Assembly: GCA_020429915.1 (NCBI GenBank)
Contig: JAGQKV010000005.1
Span: 136,279-200,278, forward strand
Length of the DNA: 64,000 nucleotides
Direction: 5' to 3'
From: Candidatus Omnitrophota bacterium
GTDB taxonomy: Bacteria; Omnitrophota; Gorgyraeia; Zapsychrales; Zapsychraceae
Positions 29,248-64,000 of the stretch are shown here, piece by piece. The notes below the pieces were generated by a model that had not been told where the DNA came from, ran no database searches, and worked only from the letters and a program-made list of their open reading frames with translations. The position numbers and the translations under genes were made by a program. Within the stretch, counting starts at the first letter, position 1. Each line of letters opens with the position of its first letter.

Positions 29248-29251
29248 AATA

Positions 29252-33172: not shown

Positions 33173-33195
33173 GCTTATGTCTTGGAGGCATTTGT

Positions 33196-33558: not shown

Positions 33559-33735
33559 TTTAAGATTGTAACGTCTTCTCTCCCTGCAATTTTTTTGTCA
33601 AAAACAATTTGACATGCCTTCATCGAAACGCCCCAAATTTTTGTGAAATAAGTTTTTGTCAGGGCTGGCATTTTTGTCGCGATATTGTATAATTATATGT
33701 ACGCTTGATAATCGAATAAGCGAAAGCGCGGAACT

Positions 33736-34593: not shown

Positions 34594-34594
34594 T

Positions 34595-36136: not shown

Positions 36137-36152
36137 TTTTCTCGACGAGAAT
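36137..36152. repeat. Copy 1 of 16-nt element TTTTCTCGACGAGAAT (13-bp palindrome TTCTCG-A-CGAGAA)
   Basis: Exact duplicate of the copy at 36332-36347. Lies inside the AT-rich spacer upstream of the giant ORF. Confidence 0.6.
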
Positions 36153-36331
36153 TACTACAATTTCTACATACAAGATAGGTATCTAGTTATTTTTTATGCT
36201 AGTAAAAATGCTAGATAATATTTGAAATCTTCCTATAAATATATTATAAATGTATATACGAATCATGATCTGACAGGCTGTGTCCGGGTATATCTGCGAA
36301 AACGTTTTCTTTTAGGTATTTTTACAGAACA

Positions 36332-36347
36332 TTTTCTCGACGAGAAT
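36332..36347. repeat. Copy 2 of 16-nt palindromic element
   Basis: Identical 16-mer 195 bp downstream of copy 1. Operator-like. Confidence 0.6.
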
Positions 36348-36448
36348 ATGGGCTAATTTAGCGAAATTTTATTGAAAATAAAACGTCTAATTTGTTGTAA
36401 GCCGTTTATTTGCAATAACATTTATTTGTAAAAATACTTGCTAAGTCG

Positions 36449-36476
36449 TTGATCTATATATATAATATGATATACT
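36449..36476 (+). promoter_or_regulatory. Candidate promoter TTGATC-16-TATACT
   Basis: AT-rich context. Lies 470 nt upstream of the giant ORF. Confidence 0.35.
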
Positions 36477-36646
36477 CTTACCATACGGGAACATGTGTGG
36501 TCGTTGTTTGAGTCGTAGGATTAATAAGTCAGGCGCCAGCACTTACTAATCAACGATTTATCAATGAATTCAACGGGGATAGCATGGTAACAGCTCCAAC
36601 CAAAAGACAAGATCTGTCCAAGCAAGTCGTCCATTCATTCAGCGCA

Positions 36647-36675
36647 GGCTGCCATTCACAGGCAGTCTTTTTTTT
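36647..36675 (+). terminator. Intrinsic terminator-like hairpin plus T8
   Basis: GGCTGCC-attcaca-GGCAGTC followed by eight T residues. Confidence 0.45.
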
Positions 36676-36945
36676 GTCCACCGAAACGAGTAATAAGAGA
36701 CCTTAATCATGATGGCTAGTACATTAATTCAGCTAATATATATTACTTTGACAATACATATAGTATTACACTTAATGGGAGAAAAAGGAAAATTCGGTAA
36801 ATTTAGTTGCCGATTAGTCAAATCATCACAAAGTGATGGCATATCGGCAAAGCGGTTGTATCAGGTTGCTCAGGCGCAAGCTGACGGCCGCAGGCAAATG
36901 TCCAATCAAAACTGGCGCTTTTTGGACATTTAATTATTCAGATTT

Positions 36946-39900
36946 ATGGACGAGAAGCCGGACAACTTGGAACCGGAAGAATCAGGAAATCCTAGCCCTC
37001 AGGGTGAGGATTTTCGTCTGTCTCCGGACTTGGTTAATCCCGATTCTCAGGCCGATACAGTTCCTGGCAAGACGCTGGAGTTGAATTTTGCCGAAGATGA
37101 CGACGTGGGAGTGCATCCCGGGCAAATTGACTTGGGCCCATACGTCGAGTCCGACCGCAAAATGCCGACCTTCCACAGCCGCTTCCATTCCTGGATGAAA
37201 GCCGTATCTCTTGCAATCATATTGGTTTTTGTTCCGGAGCAGGCCAGCTGGGCATTTAATTACAATCCGTTGGTTCTGTGGGGTGACAAATCTGCGTACC
37301 CGTCTCAATCGGCCGCTCAGCCGCATGGCGCGGAATTCAACGAGCTTGTTTCCGAACACATTGCCGGTAGTGTTTACAAATTGCTCGGAGACGTCGCCTA
37401 CAAGGACAATGCCCGAGTCAAATTGCAGCTTCCGGCTGGCGGGGCAAACTCAGACCAAGATGTTTCGTTGAACGTAAACATCAAGGGCGAGAATCCCTTT
37501 AATCTTGAATACATAAATCAGGTAGTATCTTGGTTGCGCCAGCCGGAAATCCATCCGCTTAACTGCGGGGTTTATGCGTTGCGGGATATCCTGACTGCGT
37601 ATGAAATTGATGTTGAGCTGGAGGAGTTGTCCGTTTCCTCGCTTGCTGTCGACTTGATGAGTCATATTGTCAAGCCGGGCGAGCCGAAGCTCAAGACCTC
37701 GTTGTATTCCATCAGCAAAATCGTCGACGCCTACGGCCTCGGATTTCGCAATGCCCGTCTGCCGCCGCAGGATGTTGCCAAAATCGACCCGCCATTCATC
37801 GCCAGTTTCAACAATGAACACTTCGTCACTGTCACCGCCATCCAGGACGGCATTGTATACTACAACGACATCGGCCGGCCTTCGCAACTGAGTGAAGCTT
37901 CTTTCGTTTCACAGTTGAGTGGTTTTGTCCTCGCCCGAAATCTCAACCAGCATCAAAACTTAGAAGTCGAATATATTCCGGATTCTATGGCCGCCTTTGT
38001 TTGGGGAGATAAGTGGCGCGACCAGTCTGACGACTTGCCGGGGATGTATGGTTTCTGGGATGAGTTCGGCGGCATCATCATCGGCTTGGCGCTGGCAGGG
38101 ATCGGATACGGTTTGGGGCAGCTGGCCGAAATGTACAAAACGGTCGATATGTTGGCCAAGCTGGCGCAACTTTTTGGTTCACTCGGTCAAATGCTGGGCG
38201 GGGGGATGGCCGCATTTGCGGTTAGCTTCGTGTTCTCTTATGGTCTTTCCCAGTTTGCTTCCTCGGTAGCGACAGTCTGTTACATGAAGGGCGCCTGTAG
38301 CGAAGAAGGGGCCATGTTGTTAAACATAGGTATCTCCGTCGGGGGGAATCTGTGGGCCGGAGGTGTAATTGAGGCCGCGAATGCCGGAGTAACGTCTGCG
38401 TCCGGAGCTACATTGGGAACCATGATGATGGCGGGACTCAAACAGGCCATGGTCAATTTGCCGTCGGCTCTCGCGTATTCTCTTGTTAAACGTTTTGTCA
38501 TGGTCAAGGTCGCCGAGTTTCTTATCAAGGAGTTGGATCTTGCGGACGAGGACGGCGAAGTAGATATCCTGACGCAAACCTTGGTTAATATTGTTGGGGG
38601 GGCTGTCGGTGGGATTATTGGATCGGCAGCCAGTGCTGGGGTGCAGTGGGTTGGTGGAAAGATTGTCGGAGACTCAGGCAATCAAGGCGGTTCCGTCACG
38701 CATGATTCCGAAGGCAAAGTCAACGGATACACGCCGAACTACTCTATATATACCAACGCCCAGGCGAGTGGTTTCTTTATGGATTTCATGAGCCAGGCGC
38801 TTACCAACGAGTTGACCGGGGCCTTTAACCAGCTCGTTGGTCTCGCTGGCCGATACCTTCTTGATGCTGTGGGGGTGGATGCGGATTCCGTGTTGTCTCA
38901 GGTGTTTGGGCAAATGATGTCTTCGCTGATGGCTGTCAGCATGGAGGCCTCGGCCGCCGCAGATTTGGACGAACATCGGGACGAGATTGAGGAAGAGCTC
39001 ACGAACATATTGGTGGAAGAAGGACACCTAAGAAGATCCGGCGATACATTGGAGGTGGTTGCAGACAAGAAACCTACGCAGGCGCAGATGGACGAGTACA
39101 CCCAGCGGGCCATGAACAAGGTCCGGGGAGGGATCGGTTTCCTGTCTCGCCTGAGCGGTGCTTTTTCGCAAATGGGCGGTGGCTTCATGAACCTTTTCAA
39201 CAGCGGGCGTACCAACAATAGCGGGACGCCGGGGGCGCCGCCTGTTGATCCGACAAATTTGGTCGGCACCGCACCTGGTTCCGAGGCGGGGGAAGGCAAG
39301 GGAGAAGGTAAGCTTGATTTAACGGCTGCTGTCGATTTGGCGCTGAACCAACAAGGAGCCGCAGTAAGCCTGTCGAATTTTCAGTTCAACCGGACCTTCA
39401 ATCTTATGACCCAAACCATGATGACCGAGGTGACCGGTATGATCCTGCGCGGTTTGATCAGTCTTGTGGCTGCCGCCGTCATGGACGTGATTGAAAATGA
39501 GTTTGTGGAAGGCGAACGCGAGGGGGTCAATCAAACGGACCGGTTCACGTTATTTATTACCCGGCTCATCACCTTCGGGGTGATGACAGGTGTTACGGCC
39601 GCCGTAGCCATTGCCACTTCCGAGGATGTGGTGACGCCCGACGGAAAAGCGGCTACGGCTGCAGCCGGGGAAAGTGGCGGCGCCACTGGCAGTTTCCTCA
39701 ACGCGGACCCGGATAACGCGACGACAAGGAACGGCATGTCCAAGAGCGAGCAGATGTGGTTTTTTGCGCTGGAGCCGTTTGCCAATCTGTTCATGGGTAT
39801 GGTGCGTAGTATGGCGACGGCCAACGGGACATCTCCGCTCTTCTTCTCATTCGAAGAAATCGGCAACGGCGGCCAGGCGTTAACCGATGAGCAGAAGAAT

Positions 39901-42900
39901 GACCCGGCCTTGGTGAACTATCTGTGGGCGAAAGGTGCGGATGCCTCAGGGGCCGAAGTTGCCAACATGGCCGGCCCGTGGGGAGACATCAATCGGGTTC
40001 TGGCCATTAAACGTTCACGGGAAGGTTCCGAACAGGCGATGGCCGAAGAGCGGGCCCGGGCGAAAGCGGAGCATCCCTCTCGGTCTGATGAGGAGCTGGA
40101 TTTGTATTACGGCGGCGAACAAGCCTGGAATCGGACTCTTACCGGGTTGTGGAACTTGATCGACCAAAACAGATATTCCGGCACTTACGTGTTGGATATG
40201 ATGAACAATCATCTGCTCGGCGCCATGACAAATTTGACGGCGAATCCCTTTATCAATATGGTTGAGTTCTTGGCACCTGCCTTGGGAGAAGGTGCGACTG
40301 CGTGGATGGCAGGCCACGGGCTCCAACCGAAACAGCTGATTTACCAGCAAGGTATGAGTGGACAATTTGAGCTGGGCGTACGCGGTATGAGCAGCCGTCT
40401 GGTGTTGGGCGACGGGGAGGCCCCTGTCCGGATATTCAGCGAGTTTTATGTGCAAACGGGTATGGCGGACTTTTTCTACGATCTTGATGATCTCACGGAT
40501 GCTGAGATTAACTTGCTTATTAAGAAGACGTTTGGCGAGGATTCGCAATTAACCAGGGCAGACCTTGAAAAAGATAAAAATCTGGAGTGGGAAGTACAAC
40601 AAACGTATATCGGGCTGGTTATGCTGGCCAACGGGGCGGACCCCGAAGATCAGGGCGCGATTTTGCGCATGGCTAGCCGCTCATGGGTCCTGGGGACCGC
40701 GGTTGAGCCGGAAGATATCATGATTTCACAGGTCCTTACCGATGCTGGCGTGAATAATTACTACTCCAAGGACGAGGCCACGGGCGCGCTCAATTTCTTC
40801 AGACTTCCTGGAGGGGCGGACGGCGGCAATTTAGAGGTGTATGATCAGAATTACCCCACCTATATCAACTCTAATTATTGGAAACAGTCTGAGTTGGTTG
40901 CTTATAACATGAACAATCCTGGTGGCGAAGTGCAAACTGAGGGCGGATGGCAAAAAATTGCGGACTCCGAAGATCATAATGCGCGAAACATTCCGGGCAA
41001 CGAAAATGTACGCGCCAACGGCATGGCGGCGGCTCTGAATGCGATCGCGGCATTAATCGCCGAAGGGCAAATAACCATGACCCAGGGCGAAGCTCTTATG
41101 GCGGCCTTACGTAGCGGTGACGAGACGGCCTGGAATAATAATGAAGGCGGCAAGGTCATGGCCCGTCTGAACGGTGTCACCACGCCCACCAGGGATCGTG
41201 TTGTCCAAGTTGAGCGACCCAACGGAAACGGCACTGTGCCGGAGGGCGCCCAAGTTATTCAGGGGCCTAACGGTATTAATTTCTATATGGACGATGCCGG
41301 AAATATTATTTTTGCAGGTGCAACCGGCGACGGAGCCGAGGTCATCAGTGAGGGGTCGGTTACCCTTCCGCTTCCTGCAGGTGCTCCGGAGGGCGTCGCT
41401 ACCCTTACTAAGGACGGGAATGTCGTTATTAAAGATGAAACCACTGGTGAGGTGCTCGGAACTTATACCTTGGCCCAACTGTTTCCGGGGATGTCCACAG
41501 ACGGAGGCGCGTCTCCGACAGCAACATCCTCCGGGGGCGGAGAGGCCCTCAGTTTTGCCGCTGTCTTCAAGAACATCGAGAATGCCCGGCTGACGGGATT
41601 TTTTACCGATACAACTCCGTTGGCCGAAGGTGAAACTGCTGAGGGGCGGGATCGGGCTTTTGCCAGCTACTGGATCAATGAGCGTTTCGGCGGGAACCTC
41701 CAACTGCGCATGCGTTATGGATCAATTGTGGAGGCGGGCCTCAACGACGGATATTTTGACCGGGTGGTCGAATTTAGCGTGCGCGAAGGACAACTGGTCG
41801 CCTTCCAGAGCCGGAATTTGATGGCGCTGACACCGTTCGCCGTACACTACTCCGGTTTCCGTTTCGGAGCTGCGCAGAACAGAGACTCGGACGGCAACCC
41901 AACCGACGGCTTTGCTAGATACTTCTTTGTTTTTGAACAGGCAATCGGCAATGACGGGCAAGGCGGACTGGACAAGGGCGACACGGTAGAGATTTTCCGT
42001 CTGGGATTAACCGCCGGAGTTGAGGGAGATTTCGAAGCGGCGCTGAAAGACGTTCCGGAAGAAAATAATGCAGCTACCGGCAGAGGAAAGGGAACAATAC
42101 CTACCAGAACGATTTCACAGGTTGCCTACAGCGAAGTGGGGAACCCGTTGTTCTTCAGTGAGGCCGATCGCAGCAATGCCGCCGCCGGACTGCGCGGGCG
42201 CATGCTGGGGCTCGCCAATGCTATGACCACTCGTCAAGGGGTCGCTAATGCGCCCGGGCTTATTCAACAGTTGTTCGCCGCCATCGACAGTCACCGCGAG
42301 GCTACGACAGGGTACCGGAGCATTTCGCGCACGGCGCGTAACGAGGCGCTGGCCGCCGCGCTCAGCTACGACGGCACCGTCGGTTTCCGGTTTGAGCACC
42401 GCACCGGGAGCGTCATCAATCCGATAACATTCAAAACTATTGACGATGAAGGCTCGCTGACCATGGCCATGATCGGTTCCAAATCGAACGGGACATCTCA
42501 ATTCCAGTTGGCCTTCGGCGGCACGAACATGACGTTGGACAATAACGGATTGCGGGCTGGAAACGGCGCCCTGGTCTTAATCAATACCGTGGGAGCTTAT
42601 AACATCCTCAATATCGTCAATGGAGGATGGCTGAGCGGCAATCTGAACGACGGTCTGCAGTATGCCAGCTTCCTGGCGTTTTATAACGGCCGGGTGGCCA
42701 CGCTTACCGGCTTTAATCCCGGATCGAATTTCAACAACGGTACCGAAGGATGGTCAGAAGGCGCCTTGCTTCAGGAGTTGCATAACTTATACGGCCGCGA
42801 TATGTCGGGCGCGCTTACCGGTGCATCGCTGTCAGTGAACAGCCGTCAGCTCTTCCGCTGGATTGATGCCGGCGACGATGATCGTATCAACGGTATATTG

Positions 42901-48900: not shown

Positions 48901-51900
48901 CAATCCTTCGTTAACACATTGGAGGATCTGCGCAATTGGGGATTAATTTCTATCAGCGATCGCGATATGCGGGCAATCCGGAATGGTGATGCCCTTTCCC
49001 GTCGGGAGACCGACTTTGACTTTAATGTCAATTCGCCATTTGCTGAACACAGAGAGTCTTTGCCGGAGGGCCGGGCCGGGACCAATTTTGCCGCGGAACA
49101 GCAGGCCCGTCTGGACGCCGGCGGGGCGACCGTGGCTGAGATGGGTATGGCCCGTATGGGCTTGTTGGAGGCTATGCAGTTTGCGATCGCCAGCGGCCTG
49201 ACGACGCGGGAGGAGCTGAGCGCAGGGCTGCTCGAGCGCGCCAATCGCGGTGACCAAGCCGCAGCTGATCTATTGGCTCTATTCAACAACGGCCTTCAAG
49301 GGGAAGAGTTCCGTGGGGCCATGGAAGGGGCGCGCAGCGCTGAAGTTATCCGTGTCTACACGGAGCGTTTTCAGCATGACGACTTTAAGGCTGTGTGGGG
49401 CTTCAATGAGGAAGGTCAATTCGGAGCATTGCAGGTGCGGGACTTTAACCGTTCGGAAGGATGGTTCGACTGGATCGGCAACGAGAACTTTACGGCATCC
49501 GGCCTTACCGGGCAAGAATCCGGCACAACCGGGGAAATCGATGATGACGAAGCGGTGTATGTTTCGCGCAATGAGTGGCAGGATTTGACCACCTTGGGTG
49601 ATGCGGGGGGTAGGGAACCGTCGGAGAAAACCTTCGAAGAGGCATACCAGGAAAACAAAGGGGGCACGTTGGCCCAGTTGCGCGCCATTGAAAGCTTCGG
49701 GCCGTTGCGTTATGCCGGTCAAGGTTGGGGTATGGCTGATGACGATACCGGGACGATTTTCTACGGTGAAGATGGCAAGCTGCGAACGGGCTGGATTAAC
49801 CGATCCAACGATCAGGAAGCCATTATGCGAAACATCGGCGGTGAAAATGCCCTCCGCTTCGCCGGTCAATTGGATTCCATGGGGACGGTAGCTACAATCA
49901 TGGGGGCGCTGGTTATTCTGGACGTCGTGATCACTGTGGTTGAAGTGGTCGCTATTATAGCCACGGGAGGTCTGGGTACGCCGGTTGCTGCCGGAGCTGG
50001 GGAAGGGGCTAAGCAAGGGATCAAGGCTGGCGTCCGGTTTGGGGTTCGCTACGGTGCCAGACGGGCTGTGATGGGCACGATGCGCAAGTATGGGGTGCAC
50101 GCAGCCTTGGAGGTGGCTACGCGATTGGCGGCGCATACGGCAGCTACCAGGGGCACCCGACTTTTAGCCGGTATCGCGGTGCGTGGGCTTGCGCCTATTT
50201 CCCGAAGACTGATGGCTCCCGGAGTTGTAGGGGCGTTCATGCGGGGGGCGAGTGTAAGCTATACCAAACGGCGCCTGATAGCATACGGTTTGATCGGCGG
50301 ATCCATCAATGCAGCGTTAGGTTCCTATGCCCGCGGCGAAGTGTCAATGGAAACCTTTACGGATTTTGCCCACGGCGCATTCCTCTTTGGTCTCTTGTCC
50401 CGCCGGGCGCCGGCCAAGGCGGCCGGTTCGGCGCTTCAGCGTGGCCTTACCGGAAGCTTGATGGCTGGGGCGCAACGGGCTTCCGAGGCGGTCAGATCAA
50501 CTAATTTAGGTGGTCGGGTGGCGAGTACTATGCTTGGCAGGGGGGTAACGAGCGCCGGATTTATCCTTGGCGCCGGAGTCTTTGGCGGTTCGGTTGCGGC
50601 GTTGCAACTCGGTTCGAGAATGCGCGGCAACGAGGCCCCGGGACTTTACGAGTCGCTCGCCATTGGAGGTTTGGCGACCGCGGCGATATTAGGCGGCGGC
50701 CGTTTGGCGGCGGCCCAATTCGGCGGCGCCTATGCCGGGGCCAAACAGTTCGGACAGACAATTGCCTCTATTGGGCTGCTCGGTTTGGGGGTGGGTACGT
50801 TGGTCCACGGGACAGATATGAGCCTGGAGGAACGGACCGCAAAATTGACCGGGGACGATCTCGGATTTATGTATCGCACGCGCAAGGCGTTGACAGGCGG
50901 GTTACAAACAGCGTCGTACATGACGATAGTTGCCGGCGGTATGCGCGGACTGGGTTATGCCGCCACGGCCGAGCTGAAGACCGGGAGCAGAGTGGGCGTA
51001 TCCATGTTAACCGGTGCCGGATTCGGCGGTGCGATGCGCGCGAATTATCTCGCGTGGAATAGCGATACTGCTGATGTAATGTGGGATAATGCCTTGTTGG
51101 ATATCGGAACCTATGCGGCGGGCGGTGGTTTTCTCTTGGGGCCGACCGCCTTGCTCGCGATGCGAGCCGGAGCCAGTTCTCCGCATGCAATTCGGGAGCA
51201 GATGGCGCGGACCGCATTAAGGCAGGCGGGAAGAGAGCTGGCGCAAACTGCCAAGCTCGATTCACGTGCCATCGAGATGGCCCTCAGAAGCAAAACTCCG
51301 CAGCAGCTGGCCCGGTTGGAACGGGCCGTTCGCTGGGAATTGGCGGCGCCGCGTACGTTCGGCGAACTGTCCATGCGCGGCAAGGTGCTCAATGCCGTCG
51401 GGTTTGCCGGAGTCGGCGGGGCTGGAAAGGTCGGTTACGAATACTTCTTTAATTCGTCCGCTGAAAACCCATACTCCGTGGGGCAGGGCGTGGCCGATTT
51501 CATCGGCGGCGCCGGTCTGGCCATGTTGGCGCTCTTTGCCATACGCGGGGCCAAGAATCTGAGTTTGTTGCGTAATTTCTCCGATGATGCGGCCTTCCAA
51601 TCCGCCCGTTTGGGCGCAGCTGCCAAGGGTGTTGAGGCCGCCGGTCCACGGTCTGCTGCCCAGGCCTTGTTTGATCAGTCCGCTGCAGGTGCCGCGAAGT
51701 GGACGCTTGTTTCTCCGGCTTTTACGATCGGTGGCGCGCTGTGGACAGGGCTTGCGGCCCGTGTCGAAACAATGATCGACGGCGACGAATCGCGTTACCG
51801 GAAATTCTTCGGTCCGGGGCGTTTACCGGCGTTTATCCTCCAAACGGAAGGCGGATACATTAATCTGATATCCGGACAAGGGCTTCAAGCCGTCTATGAC

Positions 51901-54900
51901 AGTGCGGTGACCGGTCCGCTTCACGGTCTGTGGATGGCTCCGGCGTTCGGAACATTCCAGGTCCTCGGCGGCAATGTCCGTCCGGGAGGCGGCATTCGTA
52001 CTGCAGCCGGCCGTTTCCTGCAAGCCGTTCAACGGGGGCCGGGAGAGTCGGCCGGCAAGATAGTCTCGACCTTGTATCGTGATGTCGGGTACATGCCGGG
52101 GTTGGTTACCCTGACCTCAACGGCGGTCGATTTCTTCAGTAACGGCAGCAACACAGTATCATTGTCAGCTTTAGCCCGGTTTATCGACAACTCCGGACTC
52201 GGCCAGGAATTGAATGCCAAATTTGCGGGTCAGGAGGTCGGTGCGGTTCGTGAAAGCCGTTACACGGAAGTTGAAGTTAACGGCGAAACAAAATATCAGT
52301 TTAAGTACGGTAACGCTGTCGAGGGAACGAACCGTCCGGTTGTTTTTAGCCACTATGAGCTTGAGGCGGCCGGGTATGCGGCCTTCCTGGGCTTGCCGCA
52401 AGTCGGTGAGCGGACGAAGCAATTGCGGACGCAGGCGCGTGATGCCGAAGCTGAAGGTAACTATGCGACAGCTCGACAGCTGGCGACCGAGGCTACGCGT
52501 ATCGACCGTTACGATACAGAGGCCTGGGGCATCAGACTGCGATCAGAACGGGGACTGGCCCTCAGCAGGGGAATTCCATTAAGAGAGGTCTCGGATTCGC
52601 ATAATGAACTTCTCGAAGTTGCCCTTTCCACGGGAGATGAAGCCTTCATCAATGACGCGAAACTGCAGCAGGGTATATACAAGTCCGATGTCAACAAGAT
52701 GGCCGCTGACAAGTACATTTATTACGGTCTGCGAGAAGTCGAAAATGCATACAATGCTACCTCAGCTGCGGAGCGGGGGCAATTCGAGGCCGCGGCTCTG
52801 CAGTTCTTCGCACGGGCTGAAGGGGCGGTCGATCGTGCGATGAGCCACAATCCGAGCAATGTGGATGCATTGGCTGCCAGGGCGAACATCGCCAAAGGGC
52901 AGGCCCTTCTGCGCGGGGATTACGCCCAGCCGGAAGTTCAGGCATCCATAATCGAAGGGTTCCGACAGGCGCAGCAACTTGCCGTACGGGAATTTGGTGC
53001 GAAATCAGATGTTGTCAACCACTTCGATATGGCAATTAAGGCGGAGGAAGGCCGGATGGCCGAGGCTCGTATGAAGGAATCCTGGCGTCAACTTGGCCGT
53101 ACGGAAGCGGGGGCGGAACTTGATTCGACGTTGGTTGCAAAGGGGGTCGCCGATGCCGCGGAAATGCGGGCCAAAATGGTGGACGGGGATTACACCGCTT
53201 CCACGCTGTTCGTCGCCGCCGAATTTGACAGAATGTCGCACGGAGATAGAGGTTTTCTGGAGCGGGACGCGACTACGGGCAATGATATCGGAGCCAAACG
53301 TTTTCACGCTTACGAAGGTGAGATGAGCCGGGCGCTTGAGTTGGCCCGGAGCGCGAACGATGCAAAGCTCGCGGATGTGATTTCCGCGAATTTGAACGCC
53401 GTTCGCTTCCAGCGCTATACCCATGAGGGATATCAAGCGGCCACCGAGCCGGGACGCGACTTGCAACTCGCTTACAGCAAGTTCGGTCAGGCACGCAAGT
53501 ATGCTGACGCTGTTTCAGCGGAAGCAGCGGAAAAGGCGGAAAGCAACTTCCAGATTATAGCCGATTTACTGCCTTCCGAAATGCTGGCCAAAGCGCGGCT
53601 GAGTACATCCGAGTGGGGGACGATCCACCAGTTTGAAGCCACACGTGTAGAGGCGAACGCCCCCAAGCAAGCGCAGGATGCGGCCGATGCTGCCCAATCA
53701 AGTTACGAGGCTATGCTGCGTACCATGAGCCCGGAAAAGGCCAGCGTTCTGCCGGAGGTCAATTTCAGGGCATGGGCTCAAATTCAAGGTAAGGCCGGCT
53801 CACCTAGTGCGCGTGTGCAAGGGCTGGCTCGGATCGCTAAGGCCCAGCACCTCCGGGGAGAATCCACGCAGGTGATTGACCGGTTGATTACACGGATGGA
53901 ATCGCAGAAAGGCAAGTCCCCTGAAGGGACGGCCCAAGTGATCGCACGTCAAATCGATCGCGAGATCGACCAGGAAATCCGTGACGTCAGGGATTTTAAG
54001 GATAATGTTAAGCCCTACGGCAAGCCTACTGAGACCTTTACGGACCGCAATGGCTTCACTGAAGCTCAACTGCGGATCATGGGGCGGTACAACAATGCGG
54101 CTAACGCGTTTTTTGAGACGGGAGGTAAAGTGCCGGTCGGTGCGGAAGTCCCGGTGGCCCGCGAGTTCCGTCTTGCCGGTGATGAATATCGCCCAATGCT
54201 TCAGGAAATGACTCCTGATCTGGCATCCCGGTTGTCTACTGATAACTATCGGCGTTGGTTGGGTATCGCCAGCGACGGGAAGATCACTACAGGTGACCGT
54301 AGTGTCGGCGCCGATAAGGGGGGTGATCAAACAGGTCTTCAGGCTACTGTTTCGGGTGACCTTTCGGTGGATGCCGCAGTGACTATTGCCAAGGCAGCCT
54401 TCCTGAGAGGTGACACGACCACACTGGAATTGATGCGCGGACGGATAGAGACGTCCAAAACCGATGACGCCGTATCCCAACGGGTGGCTCTGGAAAGCTG
54501 GATGAAGAGCACCAAACCCAATCAGCAGGCAGATTTGACCGAGGCCGGATTTGAAGTGATAGATCTCGCCTCAGCTGTGAAAACGGCCCCCGAAAGCAGC
54601 GACTTAGGGCCCGTAACCATCCGCCATACTCCCATGCCGTCCTCCGGCCATAGTAGCACAAGAAGATCTTCCGGATCAGATTTCAGTGTCATCAGTCAGT
54701 CCGGCGATGCCAAAGACGTAGAATTTGCCCGCGAAGGACTAGCCGGTGAAATGAATATCGGCCGGTCCGGTATGGATCGAAAGGCTATGCAGGGCGTGGC
54801 TGTGCGTGAAGCCGGAGACGTTTCAGGGGAAGGCAGACGTCAGGAAGATTTGAGCGCGATACTCACGGGTGTCGATTTGCGTTGGCAGTCCACTACTGAT

Positions 54901-57900
54901 GGCAAGCAGTTCAAAGAAATGTATAAGGGAATAGATTTCGAACCGATCGTCTGGGGATCCCGGCCCTATGAAGCCGGTGCGGACGCCAAAGATTTTGCGC
55001 TGCTGGTCGATAACGTTACTGGTCTTAGGAATGAACTGCGGATCGCCCAAGGCAACGCCGAAAACAGCGGAGGATATAAAGCCAGAATTGAAAAAGACGT
55101 GAATCAACGCATCGATGCCGCGCTGGACAAATTCCTTCAAGACCGGTCGCCGAACACGTCAAGAGACGCCATCAAGGAGTTTGTTGTCGAACAGGCCGAT
55201 CAGATCCTTCAACAGTACGACCGGGCGGGAGCTGCATACAGGCATGCCAAAAAAGATTTCGATGCGCATGGAACGCCGGGTCGTGAGGCGCAATCCGAAA
55301 TCCTCAGTCTCTTCTTTACGACAATCAATGAAATGGCCATGATTGAACGAAATCCTTCGCTGGCCGGAAACAACAGAATCGGCCGTGTCATGTCCGCCCC
55401 GACCGGTGCCGGTAAGTCCGTTGCCCTGGCCCTGGCCCTTGATTATTTGACCCGGATAAAGACAGCGGGCGATAAGACGACCATCGTGGCCGTGCCGAAC
55501 TTGAGCGTTAAGAAGGAAGTTATGGATATCGCCCGGATCATGGGGACCCGAATTAATGATGTGAGTGTCGGAAGCGGCGGTGAGACCGGCAAAAGCCTTA
55601 GCTTGGCCAAAGAGTCGATAAATATCGCCTTGCATTCCGAGGCGCAGCAACTTCTATTGAGTGGCCGATTGGGTAAGGACGGAACCGTCAAGAATTACCG
55701 GCTTTTCGTTGACGAAATTGACGAATTCATCCGTATGAACGATATGCGCGAGGGTGATTCCAGTGCGAAGGACGTTGAGCAATTGCGAAATTCTACTTTG
55801 CCCGCAGATAGGCGTCTGCTCCGGCGGGAACAGTCTTTACGGGAAGACATCGAAATTTTTGCCCAGATCGTCGAATCCAGGATCAGGGGGTTTGAAAATC
55901 AGGGAGACATCGCTAATCCGGCAGGTCGGGTGGTCGAACTTCTGGACAATGGAAAAACCCGTTTTATCGACCATGATGGAATCATGGCCGAATTCAAAGC
56001 CGCCTTGGCAGAACGAAAGGGTATGAGCAACCCGGAAGCCGCCTTCCGTGCATTTGAGAGGGAATTGCGTGAGGTCAGTACCGAAACCAACCATAAACGT
56101 GATGATGCTGGGAATATTATTCAGGAGGGGACGCCGGTTAATTTCAACACGTTAATCAACGAAATCGGGGCGAGTATCCGTAGGGGCGAAGGTAGTGGTG
56201 GGGCGTCCTATGACAAAGGGTCCATCACCAAGGTTGCCACCGTTGACCGGGGCGGCAGACAGTCCGATACCACTCCGGAAGTTCGCGAGCAGGCCATGGC
56301 CAATGCGGTTACCGCGCTTATGCGAGCGGCCAGAGACGGACGATTGGAACAAAATTCTCCGGATGCCGAGATTGCCTTCCAGTTGGCCTTGCGGCAAAAG
56401 CCGGCCAGCCGTGTTGCCCGCGCTTCGGATGTTATCGGTCAGGCAGACATGTTTATCGGTTTTTCAGCGACTGCCCAGTCGGTCAAATTCTATTTAGAGA
56501 ATATTGAAGGCGCCGAGATTCGTGTGGTGCGTAGCGAAAGCAACAAAGAAATCGATTCTACCGAAAGATCCGAATTGATGTTGCTTAATGACGACAGTGT
56601 CCGCGATATTGTCGGTCCGGACAGATCCGTGCGCCGCCAAATCGCTTTGATTGAACGCCGCATTTTGGGAACATCCCGGGAAGATACCAAAAGCACCGAC
56701 CTGAACCGTGACCGGATTTGGGTCAAGCTGGATAGCAATAATCAGGTCGTCAGGGCGGAGAAAGGTCAGGAAGGCGCCATAGAAATCAACCGTTCGCCCG
56801 TCACCGGTCTGCTTATCCAGAATCTTGCCTTGTTTGAGGCCTTGAGTAAGCCCGGTACACGGTTGCGTGAGGGTACCGGCGCTGAAAAATACGATGTCGT
56901 GTCAGCGGCAAGCGGCAGTGAAAAAGCGGAAACGGCTGCCAAAGCCAAGATTCAGCGGGCATTGAGTACGGATCTTGTCGTGGAAATACTGCAAACTCAT
57001 AGGGAAATAGCGGCGGCCCGTGAATCAGGTGACAGCGCCAAAGTCAGTGAACTTGATGCCAAGTTGCAAAGACTGGAATCCGAACGCAACGTTGTCGTCG
57101 TCTATAACGGTTTGGTTACAGGTTCAAACATCCTGGGCGCGAACGCGGGTGTCCGATCTCTGCGTGCGCAAGTGGAAGCCGGGGAATTCGCCGTCAAGGA
57201 ACTTACGGAAATGGCGAAGGCCGTGAGCGGGGAAACCACCCGTTCCGGTCTGGACAGCCGCCTTAACACATTGCTTAATTATGTTTCCGACGCCGATAAG
57301 TTCGGTTTGACCAAATCCGCTTCCAGCGTTCAGGGCGCGCTCAAGGAAGCGATGGACCTCAGCCGTCAGCTCGGGGAAACCACGGATGCTGGCAAAGCCA
57401 GTGCTTTGAGTTCACGAATCGCCACCCGGTTGCAGGAGGCCAGCAACGAAGTGTCCCGAGAGTTGCGGCCGATGCAGGAAAGCTACGACTTAACCTCCAA
57501 AATCAATGTCGTCTCGTGGGGAGCCAAGCCGACCGCTGAAACGAGCCAGGCCTTGGGTCGCGGGGATATTAATGAAGATGTCGGTTCCAAGCGTGCGCGC
57601 GTTAACAAGGCCTTGTCTGTTATCGCCATTCATCACGAAGGTGACATCATGAGTGACTCGTTGATCCGGGCCGCAGAGGGTATTTTGGCCAAGGGCGGCG
57701 GAGAACAGCGGGATGCGGACGTCATGGAAATGTTCCGCAAGATCATGGATGAAGCCGGGTTCCGCGGAGAGATGAATCAGGTTGTTCAGGTGGTGCGTCA
57801 GGGAACGCGGACCAATGTCGTTGAGTCGAAGGTCATGGAGTTGGCCGGTAAACGGGCGGAGCAGATAAAGATGGACCGTTTGTTGAATGTTCTTAATACG

Positions 57901-60900
57901 GTCAACGCACGAAATACAGGTAACAGGCTGACCACGATTTCGACCCTGTCAGGATCGGCCTATGAAGGCTTTGCAGCGGCCGTGGATTCCGGATATGCGC
58001 AGACGGGTAAGTTTTCGGACTTGAAACGCACAACAATTACGGCCGTCCAGGATCTGCCGACGTTAGGTCTTTTCGCCAATGAAACACTTGATATCGAATC
58101 AGGTATCATCCAAGGCCGGGCCGCAGCGCCGCAGGTCAAAATCCACTTCGAGGCCACTATGGCTGATGTTGAGAACAAGGCGGGGGCCGTTCTGGATGCC
58201 ATTGAATTTAACAAGCGCGGATTTGCGCAGCGTCTTGCAAATGCGGCTGTTACTGAGTCCAAGACCGACGCTATGCCTATGGCCGTTGCGAATTTTGGCG
58301 ACAGCACTCTCGATGCGACGCAACAAATGGCTGTCGGCAGACTTACGCAGTTACTGCCCTCCCAGGTTGAGGCGTTGGCGAAAGAAAGCGGACTGAGTAC
58401 TGAGTTGGCCCGTGAATTAGGTGAGCAGGTCGAGGCCTTGCAGGAATTCGCCAATACGAACTTGGGGACACAAAGAGTTTCCGTATATTCGTCCGCCGAC
58501 CGACCCTTAAGTGAAATTCAGCTCAATCAAATTCAGAAAAACCTGCAAGCCAATGCCGCCCAGTTTAAGGGCGTAAAGCAGGTGATTCTGCAAAATCGCG
58601 ATGTGGATCAAGCGGATTCCATGGAGGCGATCAAACTGGGAACGGAAAATCAAACCGCGCCGGTTATCTTGCCTGCTAACATAGTCACCCAAACCATATC
58701 TACGCCGATCACGATTACACCGATGACCCTGCCGACGATGACCATGCCGATGTCTCGCGGGGCTACAACGGGGGCGGATCAATCGATTGCCTTCTCCTCA
58801 GATCGGCGCATTCCGGTTGTTTCCACCGCGGGAGATCTGTCGGATGTTGAAAGCGGAACGTTGAAACAAAATTTAGGTTCGGATGATGCGTTTAAGGACG
58901 TCAGCGAGATTGTCCTGTTCGACTCGACCACCGGGCAAACGGACAACACCTTTATAGTGGAAGAGTACGGGCAAAAGACCCTTTTTGTTAATCGTCAATT
59001 AACACAAAAGTTGGCTTCCCGGCCGGTGACCCTCGGAACGGCACGGGACGAAGTCGGTATCATCGAAAGCACCCGGACCGGCGCGCCTGCCCGCGTGCTG
59101 ATGGCCGAAACCAGTGGACAAACTCGATCACAAGTCAAAGTCAATGTCTTCAACATGCCGGAGGCTACGACAGCCAGAACGCGCCCGGTGGCCGTACTGG
59201 CGTACCGTATGCCGGATGCCGCCGACAAGGGCAAGCCGATTACCTATGAACGTATGGAAATTGACGGAGGCACGGTTCGAATTGATACGGCTCAGAGACG
59301 CCGGTCCCAAATCGCCAATCTGACACGAGACTTACAAAAAGCGGAAGCTTCCGGTGATTTGAAAGCCGTGGATCAATTACGCGTAAGGATCGAAAAGCTC
59401 GAAATCGATAATGCGGGATCTCCGGAAACATCCGTCGTGCTTGTTCCGAAGCTCGATGAATTCGGTAATCCGCAGTTGGCCGGTATTATGGTCGACAATC
59501 TGTTTGTTCCGAATTTCGACACAGCGAAAGAACGGCAGTCTGAAATCGCACTTCTGACGCAGAGCCTGAAGCAAGCGGAAGATAACGGCGACACGGCGCG
59601 AGTACAGAACATCACTCAGCAAATTCAGGATCTGAAGATCAACGCCCCTGCGGTTCATGAGGCGGGTGTAACAATCACGCGCTCCATTCCCGTGAGCCGG
59701 GAAATCGCCGGCAATGAGGGCGGCGTCGTCACCAAGCCGGTTCAGGTTTCCCAGCATATTCGGTTCGACGGATTTATGGCCGATTCCGTTGCGGTCGTGC
59801 TTGAAGATACGGATGTTGGAATGGATGCAGGGGACATTATATTTATGTCACCGGCGAGCAGCAATGACAATGTGTTGCTTGTACAGTCGGGAGACAAGGC
59901 TCGCCGAGATGCCGGTCTACCTTTGGTTCGTAGGGACAGCAGAGGGTCCAAAGATCTCAAGGGAGCCATCGTTTTCGGTCAATATATCGATCTGGATCAG
60001 CCGCTTACTAGTGTCAAAATTACGAATTTTGGCCGTGGGTCTGACCAAGGCGCAGACATCGAACGCGTAGCCAATGACGTCGCCCAAATATCTCCGGATA
60101 TGATGCTGGCCTTGGCCAAGGCAAGCAACTTGGATGCGGCAACAGGAAAGCAAATGGTGGCCGAAGTGCGTGCCTTCCAGGACAGACTGACAAATAATCC
60201 GGCCGGCGAATTTACCCGTGAGGAAGTGCAGTCCAGCCTAGGAACAGTCTTCTCTGCGATAGACAGGGCTCCGGATATGGGGGCCAATTTGAAGATTGCC
60301 GCGTTACCGGTATCCGAAAGCAAGGGGCTGCCCTCGCTGCAGCCGATTGTTATCAGAGAAGCTGTGCTTTCCGACCAAAGTTTCACGCGTGGTATCAATT
60401 TATTGTCACAGATCAAACCCGAAATTATACCGGTTCTGGCGAAAGCTGCGCGAATCTCGTCAACCGATGCCAAATTAATGGCGGGTGAAGTCCGTTCGCT
60501 GCAGCGCAGTTTTTCAAGCTCGGTGAGCGGAGTTATGTCCATAAATCAGATCAAAGGTCTTGCCCGGAGAACTGTTGCGGCGATGGAACAGAATTCGGAC
60601 TTTGCCGACGCGGTCCGTTCGGCGGCAAAGGCAACTGAGACGGGAAGTTATGAGTTTGTGTTGGACGACAACGGGAGACAGGCGCTGGAATCCCTTGATT
60701 TGGGTCAGTATGTGGAGACCGGTAAGGATCAGGGATCTGGCTATATTAAGACCCAGATTCCGAAGGCGGTTATCGGGAATGTCATCGTGAACCAGATTCG
60801 GACACAGCGGTTGGCCCGGTTGGCCGATGTAATCGAGAACGACTCTCGATACATCCAGGATGCGACATCGTTGGGCACCGAGTATATCGTTGATGCAGGA

Positions 60901-63900
60901 GATGATGTGGCGACAGAATTGGTCCGGCAGAATAGCCGCTTGGCCAATCAGTTAATCAAGTCTGGCGAAGGTGCCCGGATAGATGCATTATTGACCGAAA
61001 TGGAATTGGCAATTCAAACCAGACAACCCATCAGCCGCAACCAAATTGCCGCCTTATCGGATGCCATTCGGCCTCTGGTGGTAGCCTCGACTGATAATCC
61101 CGAATTGAATATTAAGTCTGGCAGTACATCGATACAATTTGGCCAAAAACGTCTGACCATCGAGGCCCAGGCCGGAAGCCCGGATGCCAGAGACTTGGAA
61201 TTGGCCATGAGTAATCTGCAAAATGTCGATCGGATAGCCCAAGCCTTACCGGCTGTTCAGCGCGTCGCGTTCAGCACCCGCGATGATGCGGATACACCCG
61301 ATATCGGGTTTAGTGACGACGGACAGACCTTGGTAATCAAGAAGTCGCGTGTTAAAGCCCTGGCCCAGGCGGGGGCTGATTCTGCAGCGGTTGTTGGCGG
61401 CATGCAAGTTAATTCTCAAAGTGTTCCGCGTGAACAATTGGGTGTATCCGGCCGGCCGATGGAATTTGATAATCTCAGCATCACCCAAAAGGCGGCCCTC
61501 AGATTTTTACCGCGATTGAACCCCGCGAGTATCCAATCTATTGCAAAATCTGCCGCAGATGCCCAGATTATCGCTTCCGAAGTTCAGGCGATCAAGAAGG
61601 AAATCGGTGCTGAGGGGGCAGTGACCTTGGACAAACTTGCCAAGGTCGCGCCTCGATTGGTTGAGGCCGTTGTTACTGATGGTGGTCTGGGTGTCGATCA
61701 GCGCGGGCTTTCACTGAATCTGACCAATGCAGCCGGTGAGAAAAGCGGGCGGCGAACAGCCTTTAAATGGATGCCGCGTATCGAAAGCAGTGATTTGCCG
61801 ACGCTTGTCAAATCTATGACTCCCTCAGAAATCGGCGAAATGGCCAGGAAGTTTGACATTCCAGTTCTTGAAATCACAAACCCTATGGAAGCGATCAGAT
61901 TTACGGAGCATATGACGCCAAGCGACATAAAGCGGATGGTCGAGTCGGCCGAGGCGCCCGAGATCCTGGAGGCGGTGGTAAGCTTGGGAATCGATTTTGA
62001 GGACAGATCGGGTAAGGAAAAAGGCATTGAAAAACTGACCAGTGAAGTAGCCACTCGATTGTCCAATCAACTCGCCCGGGCGCAGCAGAATGCCGGCGGA
62101 AGCGCAGGCAGTTTGGCGACAACGCTATCCACCGAGGCCCCTGATTTGATCAAGTTCCTCAGTTCCAATAAGGATATGGCCCAGCAGGCTCAATCCCTGG
62201 CCTTGGCCAACCGGATATCCCGGAAATTGACGCCGCAGCTAATTGAGATCAAGAATAAAGCGATGTCCGGTGAGGCCGTATCCGTGGATACTTTGGCCGA
62301 AGAAATTGCGCCGGACCTCACGCGTGCCATCCGCAACAATTCGGACTTTGCCGCACAAACAAGGGTTTTGGCAGCCGTCCGGACATTGACAAAAATGAAC
62401 GGAATTCAATTCGGCAATGCACTCCGTTCTGATGCCGGCTCAAAACTTACGGACAAGGAAATGATGGAAGTGCAAACGCAGTTCCGTGATTTAAAAACGC
62501 AGGTTCCGGAAGGTGTCAATATCTCGATGGAAGAATTGAAAGCCATTGCTCCCAAAATCGTCGAAGTCGTTGCCAGTAACGGTGAATTCCGCCGGGCGTT
62601 GAACGATGCCGCATCCGGACCGAGTCTTGCAACAAAAATCGTCGCGAACGTCGCCAGCGATGTGGATCAGCTCAACTTGGATATAGCCCGGCTGGAGGCG
62701 ACCATTGCATCGTCGTCCCAAGGTTCGGGCGCGAATGCCCCGAGCGTGGTGGGGATCGGACAGGTAGATTCTGTCGTGACGGCAGCCGCTCTGCGTGTGA
62801 TGTTGGGTGCGGATACAAGCGATATGCAAGCCAAACTGGCCGGAGTTGGAGTAACTGTGGACGAGTTTGATGTGGCCGGTCGGCTGAAGGCTGTCCAGGA
62901 AATGAATTTCGACAAACCGGTCGTGGAGTTGAGTGACATAGAGAAAGCCGATCCGGAATTGGTCCAAAAGGTCAGAAAGAACAAGGATATTGCCAGAGTC
63001 ATTGTTGAAAATGCAGCTGTGGCAGTTATTCGATCCATGACGCCTAAACAGTTCGAGCAAATATCGCGGCAATATCGCCCGACATTGGGATCCGATAATG
63101 TGAGTAAGATGGAAGCGGAAATCGCTGATATCGAAATGAACCGTGCTCCGGGAGCGAGCGTACAGGAGGTGGATGTCGCGCAACAGGCGCCCGCTCTCAT
63201 GACGGCCGTGAAACTGAACCCGCAGTTCGCCGCTTCGATAGCTTCCCTGGGAACCGATTCCGTAGATTCCGTCGCCGTTACCCGTCAGGCTCCGATCTTA
63301 GACAATCTTTTGCGTCGTAAGAAAACAAAGATTTTCTCCACACTGGAAGCAAAGACAGCCATCAAGACTTTGGATATCAAGGTTCTTGGCAATGTTGTCA
63401 CGGAACTGCAAATGGCAGGCGAGCTTTCGGAATCAGAGGCGGATGCTGTAATGACAGGTATCAATATTGCCAGAAGTGATCCGAGCATGCTTTCAGATAA
63501 CCACCGGATGCAGAACGAGGCCCCGGCATTATTCGGTGCGCTCAACCGTTCACAAATAGTAAGTCGGCTGAAACAGGAGGTTAGCCGGCCGCGGGAGGCA
63601 GACAAGTTTGTCGCTTTAAGTCAGATGGCGAATATCTCCCGGGATGATCTCGGTGCGGCGCTCAAGGAGTCAGGTTACTTGGCCGGCCGGGACAATATAC
63701 TTAAACAATTTGACAAAATTCAGTCCAATCCCGATCCGGACGTACGGGTAGACCTCGAACTGATGGCCAAAGCCGGAGCTCCTGATTTGGCGAAGGCCTT
63801 CGATAATGCGCGCTTTACGCACACGATGGCCTCACGGGTGGACTCCTCCGTTGCCAAGACACAAGTTTTGGCGGCGCGGGCAGTGGAAGTGGTGGATTCT

Positions 63901-64000: not shown

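Follow-up and report, generated by a model that had tools for sequence, protein, structure and literature searches.

Giant open reading frames (ORFs) have been described in the bacterial phylum Omnitrophota (Seymour 2023, PMC10066038; West-Roberts 2023, bioRxiv 10.1101/2023.11.21.568195). The giant ORF of Velamenicoccus archaeovorus LiM encodes 39,678 amino acids (aa), and ORFs of more than 20 kb occur in 77 of 116 Velamenicoccia genomes (Seymour 2023, PMC10066038). Here we analyze a stretch of 64,000 nucleotides (nt), from here on the window, from a Candidatus Omnitrophota bacterium (GenBank assembly GCA_020429915.1, contig JAGQKV010000005.1, positions 136,279 to 200,278 of the forward strand). 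The window ends inside a giant gene that lies downstream of a Tad/Flp pilus locus. We find that this gene, of which the window holds the 5' part, is a genuine native protein-coding gene, and that it belongs to an already described class: the Omnitrophota giant genes beside Tad loci.

The proteins of this class have been described as carrying an N-terminal C39 peptidase, many membrane helices and SecA-like domains, and in related giants a divergent SecA_DEAD domain (PF07517) follows the membrane anchor (West-Roberts 2023). The same authors suggested that C39 processes the giant chain. The neighborhood of the genes contains gspD, gspE, gspF, rcpC, a Rotamase_2 isomerase and small genes with class III signals (West-Roberts 2023), and PilZ genes directly downstream of the giant gene are a trait of the locus (Seymour 2023; West-Roberts 2023). 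In V. archaeovorus the Tad locus lies at 12,382-29,832 of the chromosome (Seymour 2023). According to Nielsen and Lui 2026 (bioRxiv 10.64898/2026.06.07.730766), 94% of long proteins are membrane-targeted and 13 of 14 giants have flanking secretion or pilus genes. They also delineated a 24-protein 'PF03412-only' cluster among Omnitrophota proteins of at least 10 kAA (thousand amino acids).

Our locus shares with V. archaeovorus and the other Omnitrophota giants the phylum, a Tad locus just past the origin, the upstream gene set and all six marker genes in order. The proteins have in common an N-terminal C39 domain beside a signal-like segment, many membrane helices, a P-loop ATPase past the membrane anchor and poor sequence conservation; for the V. 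archaeovorus protein this likeness is one of description, without direct sequence comparison. With 27,054 nt in the window the gene exceeds the 20 kb used by Seymour 2023. The 'giant' set of West-Roberts 2023 begins above 30,000 aa or 90 kb, and the lower bound for our gene is 12,471 aa. Unlike the described giants, our protein has an ATPase that matches PF00270 (28.6-35.6 bits) and not PF07517. The 24-protein cluster, again compared by description, is similar in that it consists of very long Omnitrophota proteins with Peptidase_C39 as the only or main Pfam domain, whereas our protein adds a detectable DEAD-like domain.

We did not assign the protein to the Archaeovorin subtype, whose enzyme and HEAT/TPR domains are lacking in the 9,018 visible residues. 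Membership in the dockerin-type giants was rejected, as there are no PF00404 or PF18884 matches (dockerin, TSP3 repeats) in the same residues.

Four window proteins (TadA, malate dehydrogenase, the secretin and the large pilin-like protein in a 1,306-aa form) have identical counterparts among the NCBI proteins of a Candidatus Omnitrophica metagenome-assembled genome (MAG); accessions of identical proteins include MCA9393545.1, MCA9393548.1 and MCA9393549.1. All four occur on public contigs, the longest of them 462,557 bp; a 2.0-Mb contig carries a relative with more than 90% identity. The initial annotation, a reading of the letters made without knowledge of their origin, had offered as speculation that a giant gene beside Tad pili is reminiscent of Omnitrophota. 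The MAG-identical proteins and the published synteny show that this idea was correct. That the gene is real and a member of the Omnitrophota giant-gene class is almost certain.

A native gene that runs off the window

Exhaustive translation of the plus-strand frame from ATG 36946 to 63999 gives 9,018 codons and no stop (27,054 nt open), as the initial annotation had claimed for a frame of 27 kb that runs off the window. The remaining two plus-strand frames contain 332 and 468 stops over the same stretch. At 3.7% stops per codon, the chance of an open frame this long is ~1e-147. The ORF had been reported as missing from the ORF list, and it is absent because the listing omits ORFs that run off the source.

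The composition of the frame is that of a native gene. The window has a GC content of 51.6% and no N, and GC at the three codon positions follows GC1>GC2<GC3 in all 3-kb blocks of the giant ORF. Relative synonymous codon usage correlates with that of 16 other window genes at r=0.92, compared to 0.32 for a frame-shifted control; the three thirds of the ORF reach 0.93, 0.89 and 0.85. A collapsed repeat had been named as a possible problem. We find no such nucleotide repeats: Tandem Repeats Finder reports a single 30-nt array, and the longest direct repeat is 30 nt.

Two public assemblies that derive from other samples contain the same sequence. Over 20,873 nt, Logan contig SRR6747735_2951 (99,388 bp) is base-identical to the window, a stretch that takes in the initial 8.5 kb of the giant gene; for one ENA contig the identical stretch is 11,707 nt. 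The gene call on the Logan contig reaches 12,471 residues without a stop before the contig end (at least 37,413 nt open). At least 3,453 residues, and possibly many more, lie beyond the window, so the initial estimate of more than 9000 aa was correct.

Retrieval of downstream sequence, proposed initially as the way to the true end of the gene, extended the gene without reaching that end: a search of GTDB representatives and public contigs for the 3' end reached the 12,471 aa on the 99-kb contig as the longest version. Residues 8019-9018 have no match in the GTDB representatives. A JGI metagenome scan toward the 3' end found one weak 1.6-kb relative and nothing else, and a word-index protein search found no homologue for aa 7819-9018 or aa 6000-7000.

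Large protein libraries lack the giant protein, or near-identical fragments of it, for two internal regions, though dozens of samples contain the organism. These libraries seem to lack most giant or contig-truncated gene products, and the statement 'no homologue' needs care for such genes. Within the giant gene, Pfam matches none of the ORFs in other frames or antisense (up to 285 aa), and scans for Rfam families and tRNAs are negative inside and near the gene.

The nearest in-frame stop before the ORF is a TAA ending at 36933, and the first ATG thereafter is at 36946. The initial annotation also considered a start at ATG 37195 (M84), which would turn the following hydrophobic segment into a signal peptide. 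Residues upstream of M84 are conserved: among 16 homologues F76, S78 and F80 are invariant and W83 is nearly invariant, and aa 1-100 share 46-52% identity with the two closest relatives. Because residues before M84 are conserved among homologues, translation starts at or near 36946 and not at ATG 37195. The hydrophobic segment is therefore internal, either a signal-anchor or an unusually long-necked signal peptide; the segment itself stands, the downstream start does not. The ATG of the giant gene has no obvious Shine-Dalgarno sequence.

Domains, cysteines and relatives of the giant protein

The acidic N-terminus, given initially as 83 aa, comprises aa 1-85 with 19 D/E and 7 K/R. Right after the hydrophobic segment follows the near-invariant motif SWAFNYNP (aa 101-108). 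Four K/R lie in the 15 residues before the hydrophobic segment and 0-1 after it. By this charge bias at the first helix, the N-terminus is predicted to be inside the cell.

The next domain was initially described as C39-like, and both sequence and fold comparisons agree. Pfam PF03412 matches with 25.8 bits (cut-off 22) and reaches 29.7-37.0 bits in three homologues scanned; it is listed for all 15 homologues of one set. A profile comparison matches the double-glycine protease LahT150 (6mpz) at E 6.5e-4. In an AlphaFold2 model based on a 14-sequence alignment, the core has a predicted local distance difference test (pLDDT) score of 83-93. Foldseek aligns the model to 6mpz with E 1.2e-5 and a target-normalised TM-score of 0.63. 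The top 20 Foldseek matches contain LahT150, PCAT1, ComA, the HlyB C39-like domain and one papain-like protease toxin (9l5u). LahT150, PCAT1 and ComA match with E-values of 1e-5 to 1e-3 and target-normalised TM-scores of 0.62-0.65; with the HlyB C39-like domain included, the E-values span 1e-5 to 5e-3 at a target-normalised TM-score of about 0.63.

C207, H292 and D308 align with the catalytic residues of 6mpz. The triad is retained across the family: Cys in 81 of 81, His in 79 of 79 and Asp in 77 of 79 sequences, where the conservation of Cys is partly fixed by the search pattern and that of His and Asp is not. The domain is a papain-like peptidase with an intact Cys-His-Asp triad. Fold and aligned Cys, His and Asp are shared with the C39 domains of ABC exporters (LahT150 6mpz, PCAT1 4ry2/6v9z, ComA 5xe8). 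In contrast to those, our C39 is not fused to an ABC transporter, is predicted to be periplasmic, and no double-glycine leader was identified. A peptidase-containing ABC transporter (PCAT) was ruled out, as there is no ABC_membrane or ABC_tran match in the 9,018 residues. A match to NCBIfam TIGR03796 is confined to the C39 part (18 bits, cut-off 853).

A Kyte-Doolittle scan finds at least 13 hydrophobic segments in two blocks. All membrane calls are hydropathy windows combined with charge counts, which is a heuristic and not a trained predictor. Block 1 has six strong glycine-rich segments (376-394, 416-438, 457-475, 546-564, 831-849 and 874-892) and nine GxxxG motifs within aa 376-565, which fits the glycine-zipper helices noted initially. 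After it, the 3,428 residues of aa 893-4320 have a net charge of -170, no Cys and no hydrophobic segment, and match nothing in Pfam, NCBIfam or PDB sequences. Across aa 560-4320 no recognizable domain is found by Pfam, NCBIfam or phmmer against PDB, so that several thousand residues are indeed without recognizable domains. The second membrane block was likewise seen correctly from the letters. It opens with helix 4321-4343, the most hydrophobic of the protein (mean hydropathy 2.77), continues with a net charge of +20 over aa 4345-4530 and then has about seven weaker glycine-rich segments up to aa 4938.

The P-loop of the initial annotation (SAPTGAGKS, aa 6150-6158) can be refined to a DEAD/DEAH-like ATPase domain by PF00270. 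The ATPase lies 1,200 residues past the second membrane block. Motifs I, II and III of superfamily 2 (SF2) DEAD/DEAH proteins are present in RecA-like domain 1. In-silico removal of aa 6276-6480 raises the PF00270 score from 28.6 to 35.6 bits, and the match then extends through motif III (model positions 18-161 of 167). Because excision both raises the score and extends the match, the gap of 246 residues between motifs II and III contains an insertion (~205-246 residues). The preprotein cross-linking domain of SecA sits at this position.

The ATPase resembles SecA in its RecA-like P-loop domain, the large insertion between motifs II and III and the association with the membrane; this likeness is one of domain arrangement only. 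PF07517 (SecA_DEAD), the SecA preprotein-binding domain and the wing/scaffold domains have no Pfam match at E up to 10. Phmmer of the ATPase region against PDB finds no SecA. Hhalign of a 2-sequence ATPase profile against E. coli SecA gives a probability of 0.6%; the SecA query itself was checked against 6s0k (1,842 bits). In shuffled Smith-Waterman comparisons z is 0.26-0.5 for SecA and 1.85 for eIF4A, the latter with an unverified sequence. SecA-like motifs aligned by eye were dropped as statistically unsupported, and membership in SecA was rejected (no SecA Pfam domains, hhalign 0.6%, Smith-Waterman z 0.3). Phmmer of the two halves of the protein against PDB returns nothing meaningful.

The C-terminal repeats of the initial annotation are at least ten degenerate units of ~95 aa. 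Two further candidates, aligned by eye, lie at about aa 8793-8991, and the array probably continues past the window. It is plausible that the repeats are helical. A profile of the repeat has insignificant matches only in the PDB (designed helical proteins, a retron AAA ATPase).

The protein is almost devoid of cysteine. Its 9,018 residues contain three Cys, namely C207 of the triad and the conserved C445/C451 pair. The 0.72% of the non-pilin window genes would predict about 65, and the rate of all 28 genes 117. The other 28 window ORFs contain 135 Cys in 10,366 aa (neighboring genes 0.7-1.3%). There are three in-frame TGY codons, whereas the other frames have 284 and 451. In 21 relatives, 3-9 Cys occur within the first 3,600 residues, mostly in close CX3-7C pairs. 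The exclusion extends to the presumed cytoplasmic half. Few Cys in close pairs are typical of autotransporter passengers and of type I secretion substrates that cross a narrow channel. The scarcity of Cys may stem from export of an unfolded chain, or from selection against mis-oxidation in so large a protein.

A family scan with a degenerate pattern of the N-terminal module (N-module) against the GTDB species representatives yielded at least 80 loci. Most of them carry the label Omnitrophota; 'uncultured Planctomycetales' is the label of about 30 binned MAGs, and Elusimicrobia, Caldithrix sp. or unclassified 'bacterium' that of a few loci. Named genera include Zapsychrus, Aceula and Omnitrophus. 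From this comparison, the N-terminal 370 residues (anchor, SWAFNYNP and C39) are a module conserved across the phylum. The initial annotation recognized no homologous family by eye; this is true of the protein beyond the N-module, and not of the N-module itself. In 73 of the 80 listed loci no stop interrupts the frame before the fetched DNA or contig ends, with open lengths reaching 3,780 codons or more. Of the 63 loci that have at least 3 kb of upstream DNA, 58 carry TadC upstream on the same strand (median distance 1,024 nt). Two loci inspected closely have the order large pilin-like protein, 120-aa protein, TadB, TadC, giant gene.

Conservation varies greatly. The closest relative (L006) shares 90-91% identity with the window in TadB and TadC and 79% in the C39 block. 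Its giant protein can be aligned only to aa 1090 (37% overall), and BLASTP finds nothing significant beyond. For the outer region, locus L007 has weak colinear matches only (26-29%). The sole relative found for aa 4125 to ~6750 is P0038, a 2,480-aa fragment on a 7.6-kb NCBI MAG contig. It is colinear with the giant protein at 43% identity over 2,648 aa, a stretch that includes membrane block 2 and the ATPase part. P0038 is also the one match of a HMMER search with the ATPase region against 1.84 billion representatives. This single match tells more about a library that lacks giant or truncated proteins than about rarity. By these alignments, the middle region evolves far faster than the neighboring genes.

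Some relatives have interrupted giant frames. One (L087) has an in-frame TAA at positions 107-109 (~aa 4,088), inside clearly homologous sequence, and in another (L003) the giant gene is called in at least four pieces on one long contig. A stop falls within the fetched DNA in seven of the 80 loci (L023, L028, L043, L049, L056, L062 and L082). Such interruptions may be sequencing errors, real gene splits or decay.

Neighborhood and coordinates of the locus

The start of the window is the chromosomal origin, as follows from the gene order from ParB to GyrA together with a sign change of the GC skew at ~4 kb. ParB, ParA and YidC lie on the minus strand, and DnaA, DnaN, GyrB, GyrA and tRNA-Glu on the plus strand (1-12453). 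All genes past dnaA, including the giant gene, are co-oriented with replication (leading strand). The giant gene starts ~31 kb past the end of dnaA.

The Tad locus begins with a Rotamase_2 peptidyl-prolyl isomerase, RcpC/CpaB, a secretin-TonB_C protein, a ParA-like-TadA protein, DUF192 and a 552-aa helix-turn-helix protein. It continues with an Flp pilin, five more small pilin-like genes, Cys-rich proteins of 430, 1,317 and 133 aa, TadB and TadC. Two fusions are unusual: the RcpA/CpaC secretin carries a C-terminal TonB_C domain (18645-20330), and one 721-aa protein joins a ParA/MinD-like (TadZ/CpaE-like) domain to the TadA/CpaF T2SSE ATPase (20387-22552). The DUF192 gene and the 552-aa protein lie between tadA and the pilin genes (22594-24666); the N-terminal HTH_32 match of the latter is weak and below threshold. 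Six consecutive small genes of 73-137 aa have Flp-type class III signals, KGQS(T/A)(I/L)EY (25291-27582), and only the first of them reaches the Pfam Class_IIIsignal threshold. A prepilin peptidase (TadV/CpaA) was not recognized in the window. TadC is present in 64 blocks of a public sample collection, on contigs of up to 462 kb.

The three Cys-rich proteins are encoded at 27604-28896 (430 aa), 29219-33172 (1,317 aa) and 33157-33558 (133 aa). They contain 8, 56 and 10 Cys, respectively, and have no Pfam match. Their N-termini are of Flp/pseudopilin type: KAQTAIELAV, KKGQVAVV and KAQSTIEIAS. The trio has a (G/A)Q(S/T)xxE(Y/L/I)-type N-terminus, of which the 1,317-aa protein has only KKGQVAVV. 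The proteins resemble giant minor pilins or an adhesin at the pilus tip. Synteny holds for them in most relatives, but in L006, where TadB and TadC are ~90% identical, they reach only 60-69% identity.

The spacer between TadC and the giant gene has no convincing ORF, and its 74-aa ORF (36709-36933) is not conserved in relatives. ENA contig k141_246358 breaks inside the spacer, 834 nt past TadC. No ABC, membrane fusion protein or TolC genes were found in the window, and no glycoside hydrolase gene was seen among the 28 upstream ORFs. Table 1 lists the features of the locus.

Table 1. Coordinates of the giant gene, its predicted parts and its upstream region in the window.
Feature	Position in window	Strand	Basis or remark
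Tad/Flp pilus locus upstream of giant gene	16779..35467	+	
AT-rich non-coding spacer, 1.48 kb, 39.8% GC	35468..36945	+	not conserved in relatives
Sigma-70-like site in spacer	36438-36466		10/12 matches
Terminator-like hairpin with T-run in spacer	36646-36668		
Giant ORF	36946..63999	+	9,018 codons in window, unterminated; at least 12,471 codons on longer public contig
N-terminal acidic tail, aa 1-85	36946..37200	+	predicted cytoplasmic; conserved juxtamembrane motif PFxSRFxxWxK
Hydrophobic signal-anchor or signal peptide, aa 86-104	37201..37269	+	hydropathy, charge
Peptidase C39 domain, aa 196-330	37531..37935	+	Pfam PF03412, profile, AlphaFold2, Foldseek
C39 triad Cys207, His292, Asp308	37564-37566; 37819-37821; 37867-37869	+	
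Membrane block 1, aa 376-892	38071..39621	+	hydropathy
Conserved CX5C pair C445/C451	38278-38298	+	loop predicted periplasmic
Domain-less acidic region, aa 893-4320	39622..49905	+	predicted extracytoplasmic, hypervariable between relatives
Membrane block 2, aa 4321-4938	49906..51759	+	hydropathy; well conserved in fragment P0038
Region without family assignment, aa 4939-6094	51760..55227	+	predicted cytoplasmic; colinear with P0038
DEAD/DEAH-like P-loop ATPase region, aa 6095-6960	55228..57825	+	Pfam PF00270
Walker A SAPTGAGKS, aa 6150-6158	55393-55419	+	
Walker B VDEIDE, aa 6255	55708-55725	+	
Piece excised in splice test, aa 6276-6480	55771-56385	+	between motifs II and III
Motif III FSATA, aa 6506	56461-56475	+	
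Candidate motifs V and VI	57106-57132; 57547-57567	+	by eye only
At least 10 degenerate ~95-aa repeats, aa 7120-8782	58303..63291	+	recurring AP(D/A)L..A...N..F

A possible contact scaffold and its alternatives

To explain the architecture of the protein we propose the following topology. The N-terminus would be cytoplasmic and C39 periplasmic, followed by six helices. The acidic, cysteine-free and hypervariable region of 3,400 residues would lie outside the cell. Helix 4321-4343 would return the chain inward, so that the membrane-proximal region, the ATPase and the ~95-aa repeats would all be cytoplasmic. The orientation of N-terminus and C39 is suggested because K/R are biased to the side before the first helix; that charges of this kind mark the inside (positive-inside rule) is established knowledge. 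The acidic region is placed outside because six strong helices follow C39, and the part after helix 4321-4343 inside because of the +20 stretch, which also fits the requirement of the ATPase. The model gains support because the conserved CX5C pair falls in a loop that it places in the periplasm.

In functional terms, the giant protein may be an envelope-spanning scaffold, anchored in the inner membrane, that cooperates with the Tad pilus during contact with host or prey cells. The fast-evolving exposed outer region would make the contact. C39 could process the giant polypeptide itself or a neighboring exported protein, and the cytoplasmic ATPase could power the insertion or remodeling of segments that are exported or translated later. 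As a detailed model of topology and function this is tentative, and we hold it to be possible rather than probable. The broader reading, an Omnitrophota giant gene with the proposed topology that acts as a Tad-linked contact scaffold, is our best explanation overall, and we regard it as moderately probable.

Several points weigh against this reading. The giant gene and its topology are known here from sequence alone, and the topology derives from a hydropathy and charge heuristic in which the weak block-2 helices may be even or odd in number. A periplasmic C39 is unusual, since the solved relatives sit on the cytoplasmic side of ABC exporters. The conserved oxyanion Gln was not found at its usual position in the C39 family alignment. 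In the ATPase, a second RecA-like domain (Helicase_C, PF00271) is not detected by Pfam, even without the presumed insert, and SecA-specific similarity was not detectable, with only the place of the insertion SecA-like. Modeling the structure of segments, as proposed initially, worked for the C39 core and failed for the ATPase region, where AlphaFold2 with a 2-sequence alignment gives a mean pLDDT of 40.5, unusable for a fold search. Finally, Pfam and NCBIfam detect neither adhesin nor lectin nor glycoside hydrolase domains among the 9,018 visible residues, so a role in contact or degradation is suggested by the gene context only.

At the level of the gene, the open frame could be an assembly artefact, a chimera or a decaying pseudogene and not one translated gene. 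Assemblies do break near the gene (ENA k141_246358), and the homologous frame has a stop in seven of 80 relatives, with L003 in at least four pieces and an in-frame TAA in L087. However, a pseudogene would gain stops quickly, and this frame has none over 9,018 codons where the other frames have 332 and 468. Codon usage and the GC1/2/3 pattern are uniform and native, there are no nucleotide repeats to collapse, another assembly is base-identical over the first 8.5 kb, and 73 of 80 relatives are likewise open. We consider this explanation close to refuted and leave it hardly any probability. At the level of the ATPase, the cytoplasmic half could be a nucleic-acid helicase that acts on RNA or DNA, for example to tether its own very long mRNA, instead of a translocation or remodeling motor. 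The sole significant family match is indeed the DEAD/DEAH box helicase family PF00270, and the pairwise z is 1.85 for eIF4A (unverified sequence) versus 0.26 for SecA. Yet Helicase_C is not detected, motif VI has a single arginine (by eye), and a motif II-III gap of 246 residues with an insertion is atypical for DEAD-box helicases. The domain also lies 1,200 residues past a membrane block, and the equivalent domains of related giants were classed as SecA_DEAD (West-Roberts 2023). We consider a helicase role very unlikely.

The remaining alternatives concern what the protein does at the cell surface. The leading hypothesis in the literature is a multi-enzyme 'Archaeovorin' that digests the cell wall of prey with surface glycosyl hydrolases, transferases and other enzymes. 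Our locus has the context and the N-terminal architecture of the proteins for which this was proposed, and the C-terminal part of at least 3,453 aa beyond the window could carry such domains. In the 9,018 residues, however, Pfam and NCBIfam find no glycosyl hydrolase, glycosyltransferase, methyltransferase, NUDIX, HEAT or TPR domain, phmmer against PDB finds nothing, and there is no glycoside hydrolase gene among the 28 upstream ORFs. For the protein studied here we think this hypothesis unlikely. Distinctly less likely is a secreted substrate, in which the outer region, or the whole chain once cleaved by C39, would pass in unfolded form through the Tad secretin or some other narrow channel to reach the host surface. 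Three Cys in 9,018 aa, compared to 0.7-1.3% in neighbors, and the CX3-7C pairs of relatives would suit such a passage, as would a secretin gene and a protease domain within one locus. But the ATPase region, which is necessarily cytoplasmic, lacks Cys just as much, and the bias may therefore have a different origin. The two membrane blocks speak for a protein retained in the membrane, a cleavage site was not identified, and Tad secretins are known for passing pilus fibers, not chains of 3,000 residues. A further reading is that Tad locus and giant gene form a new contact-dependent export machine. The hypervariable region of 3,400 residues would be threaded unfolded, possibly via the TonB_C-fused secretin, released or trimmed by periplasmic C39 and powered by the cis-encoded DEAD-like motor; it would serve as a fast-evolving harpoon or tether for host cells, beside a pilus tipped with the Cys-rich 1,317-aa pilin. 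Cys exclusion would then be selected because the region must cross the envelope unfolded, with only the catalytic Cys and close pairs tolerated. We judge this reading improbable.

Giant RTX or Ig-repeat adhesins and the adhesins of episymbionts (Patescibacteria, Nanohaloarchaeota) are similar to our protein in size, acidity, few Cys and a presumed role in cell-cell contact. In contrast to RTX and Ig-repeat adhesins, our protein is predicted to be polytopic in the inner membrane, with a large cytoplasmic part that contains an ATPase. A type I secreted RTX or Ig-repeat adhesin was rejected, as Pfam finds no Ig-like or RTX match and the window has no type I secretion genes.

Omnitrophota giant genes rank among the longest known genes. 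The bacteria that carry them are tiny and probably host-dependent. The cell-wall-degradation hypothesis gains no support from the 9,018 residues visible here. The cysteine pattern (3 in 9,018) is not mentioned in the two giant-gene preprints, West-Roberts 2023 and Nielsen and Lui 2026, from which the word 'cysteine' is absent; Seymour 2023 was not searched for it. The gene is a comparatively simple example of its class: only two catalytic domains are recognizable, the membrane layout has two clean blocks, and the Tad partner locus is conserved. An N-module with an intact triad, an outer region that diverges beside pilus genes that are 90% identical, and the near-absence of Cys offer experimental handles on processing, topology and host contact.

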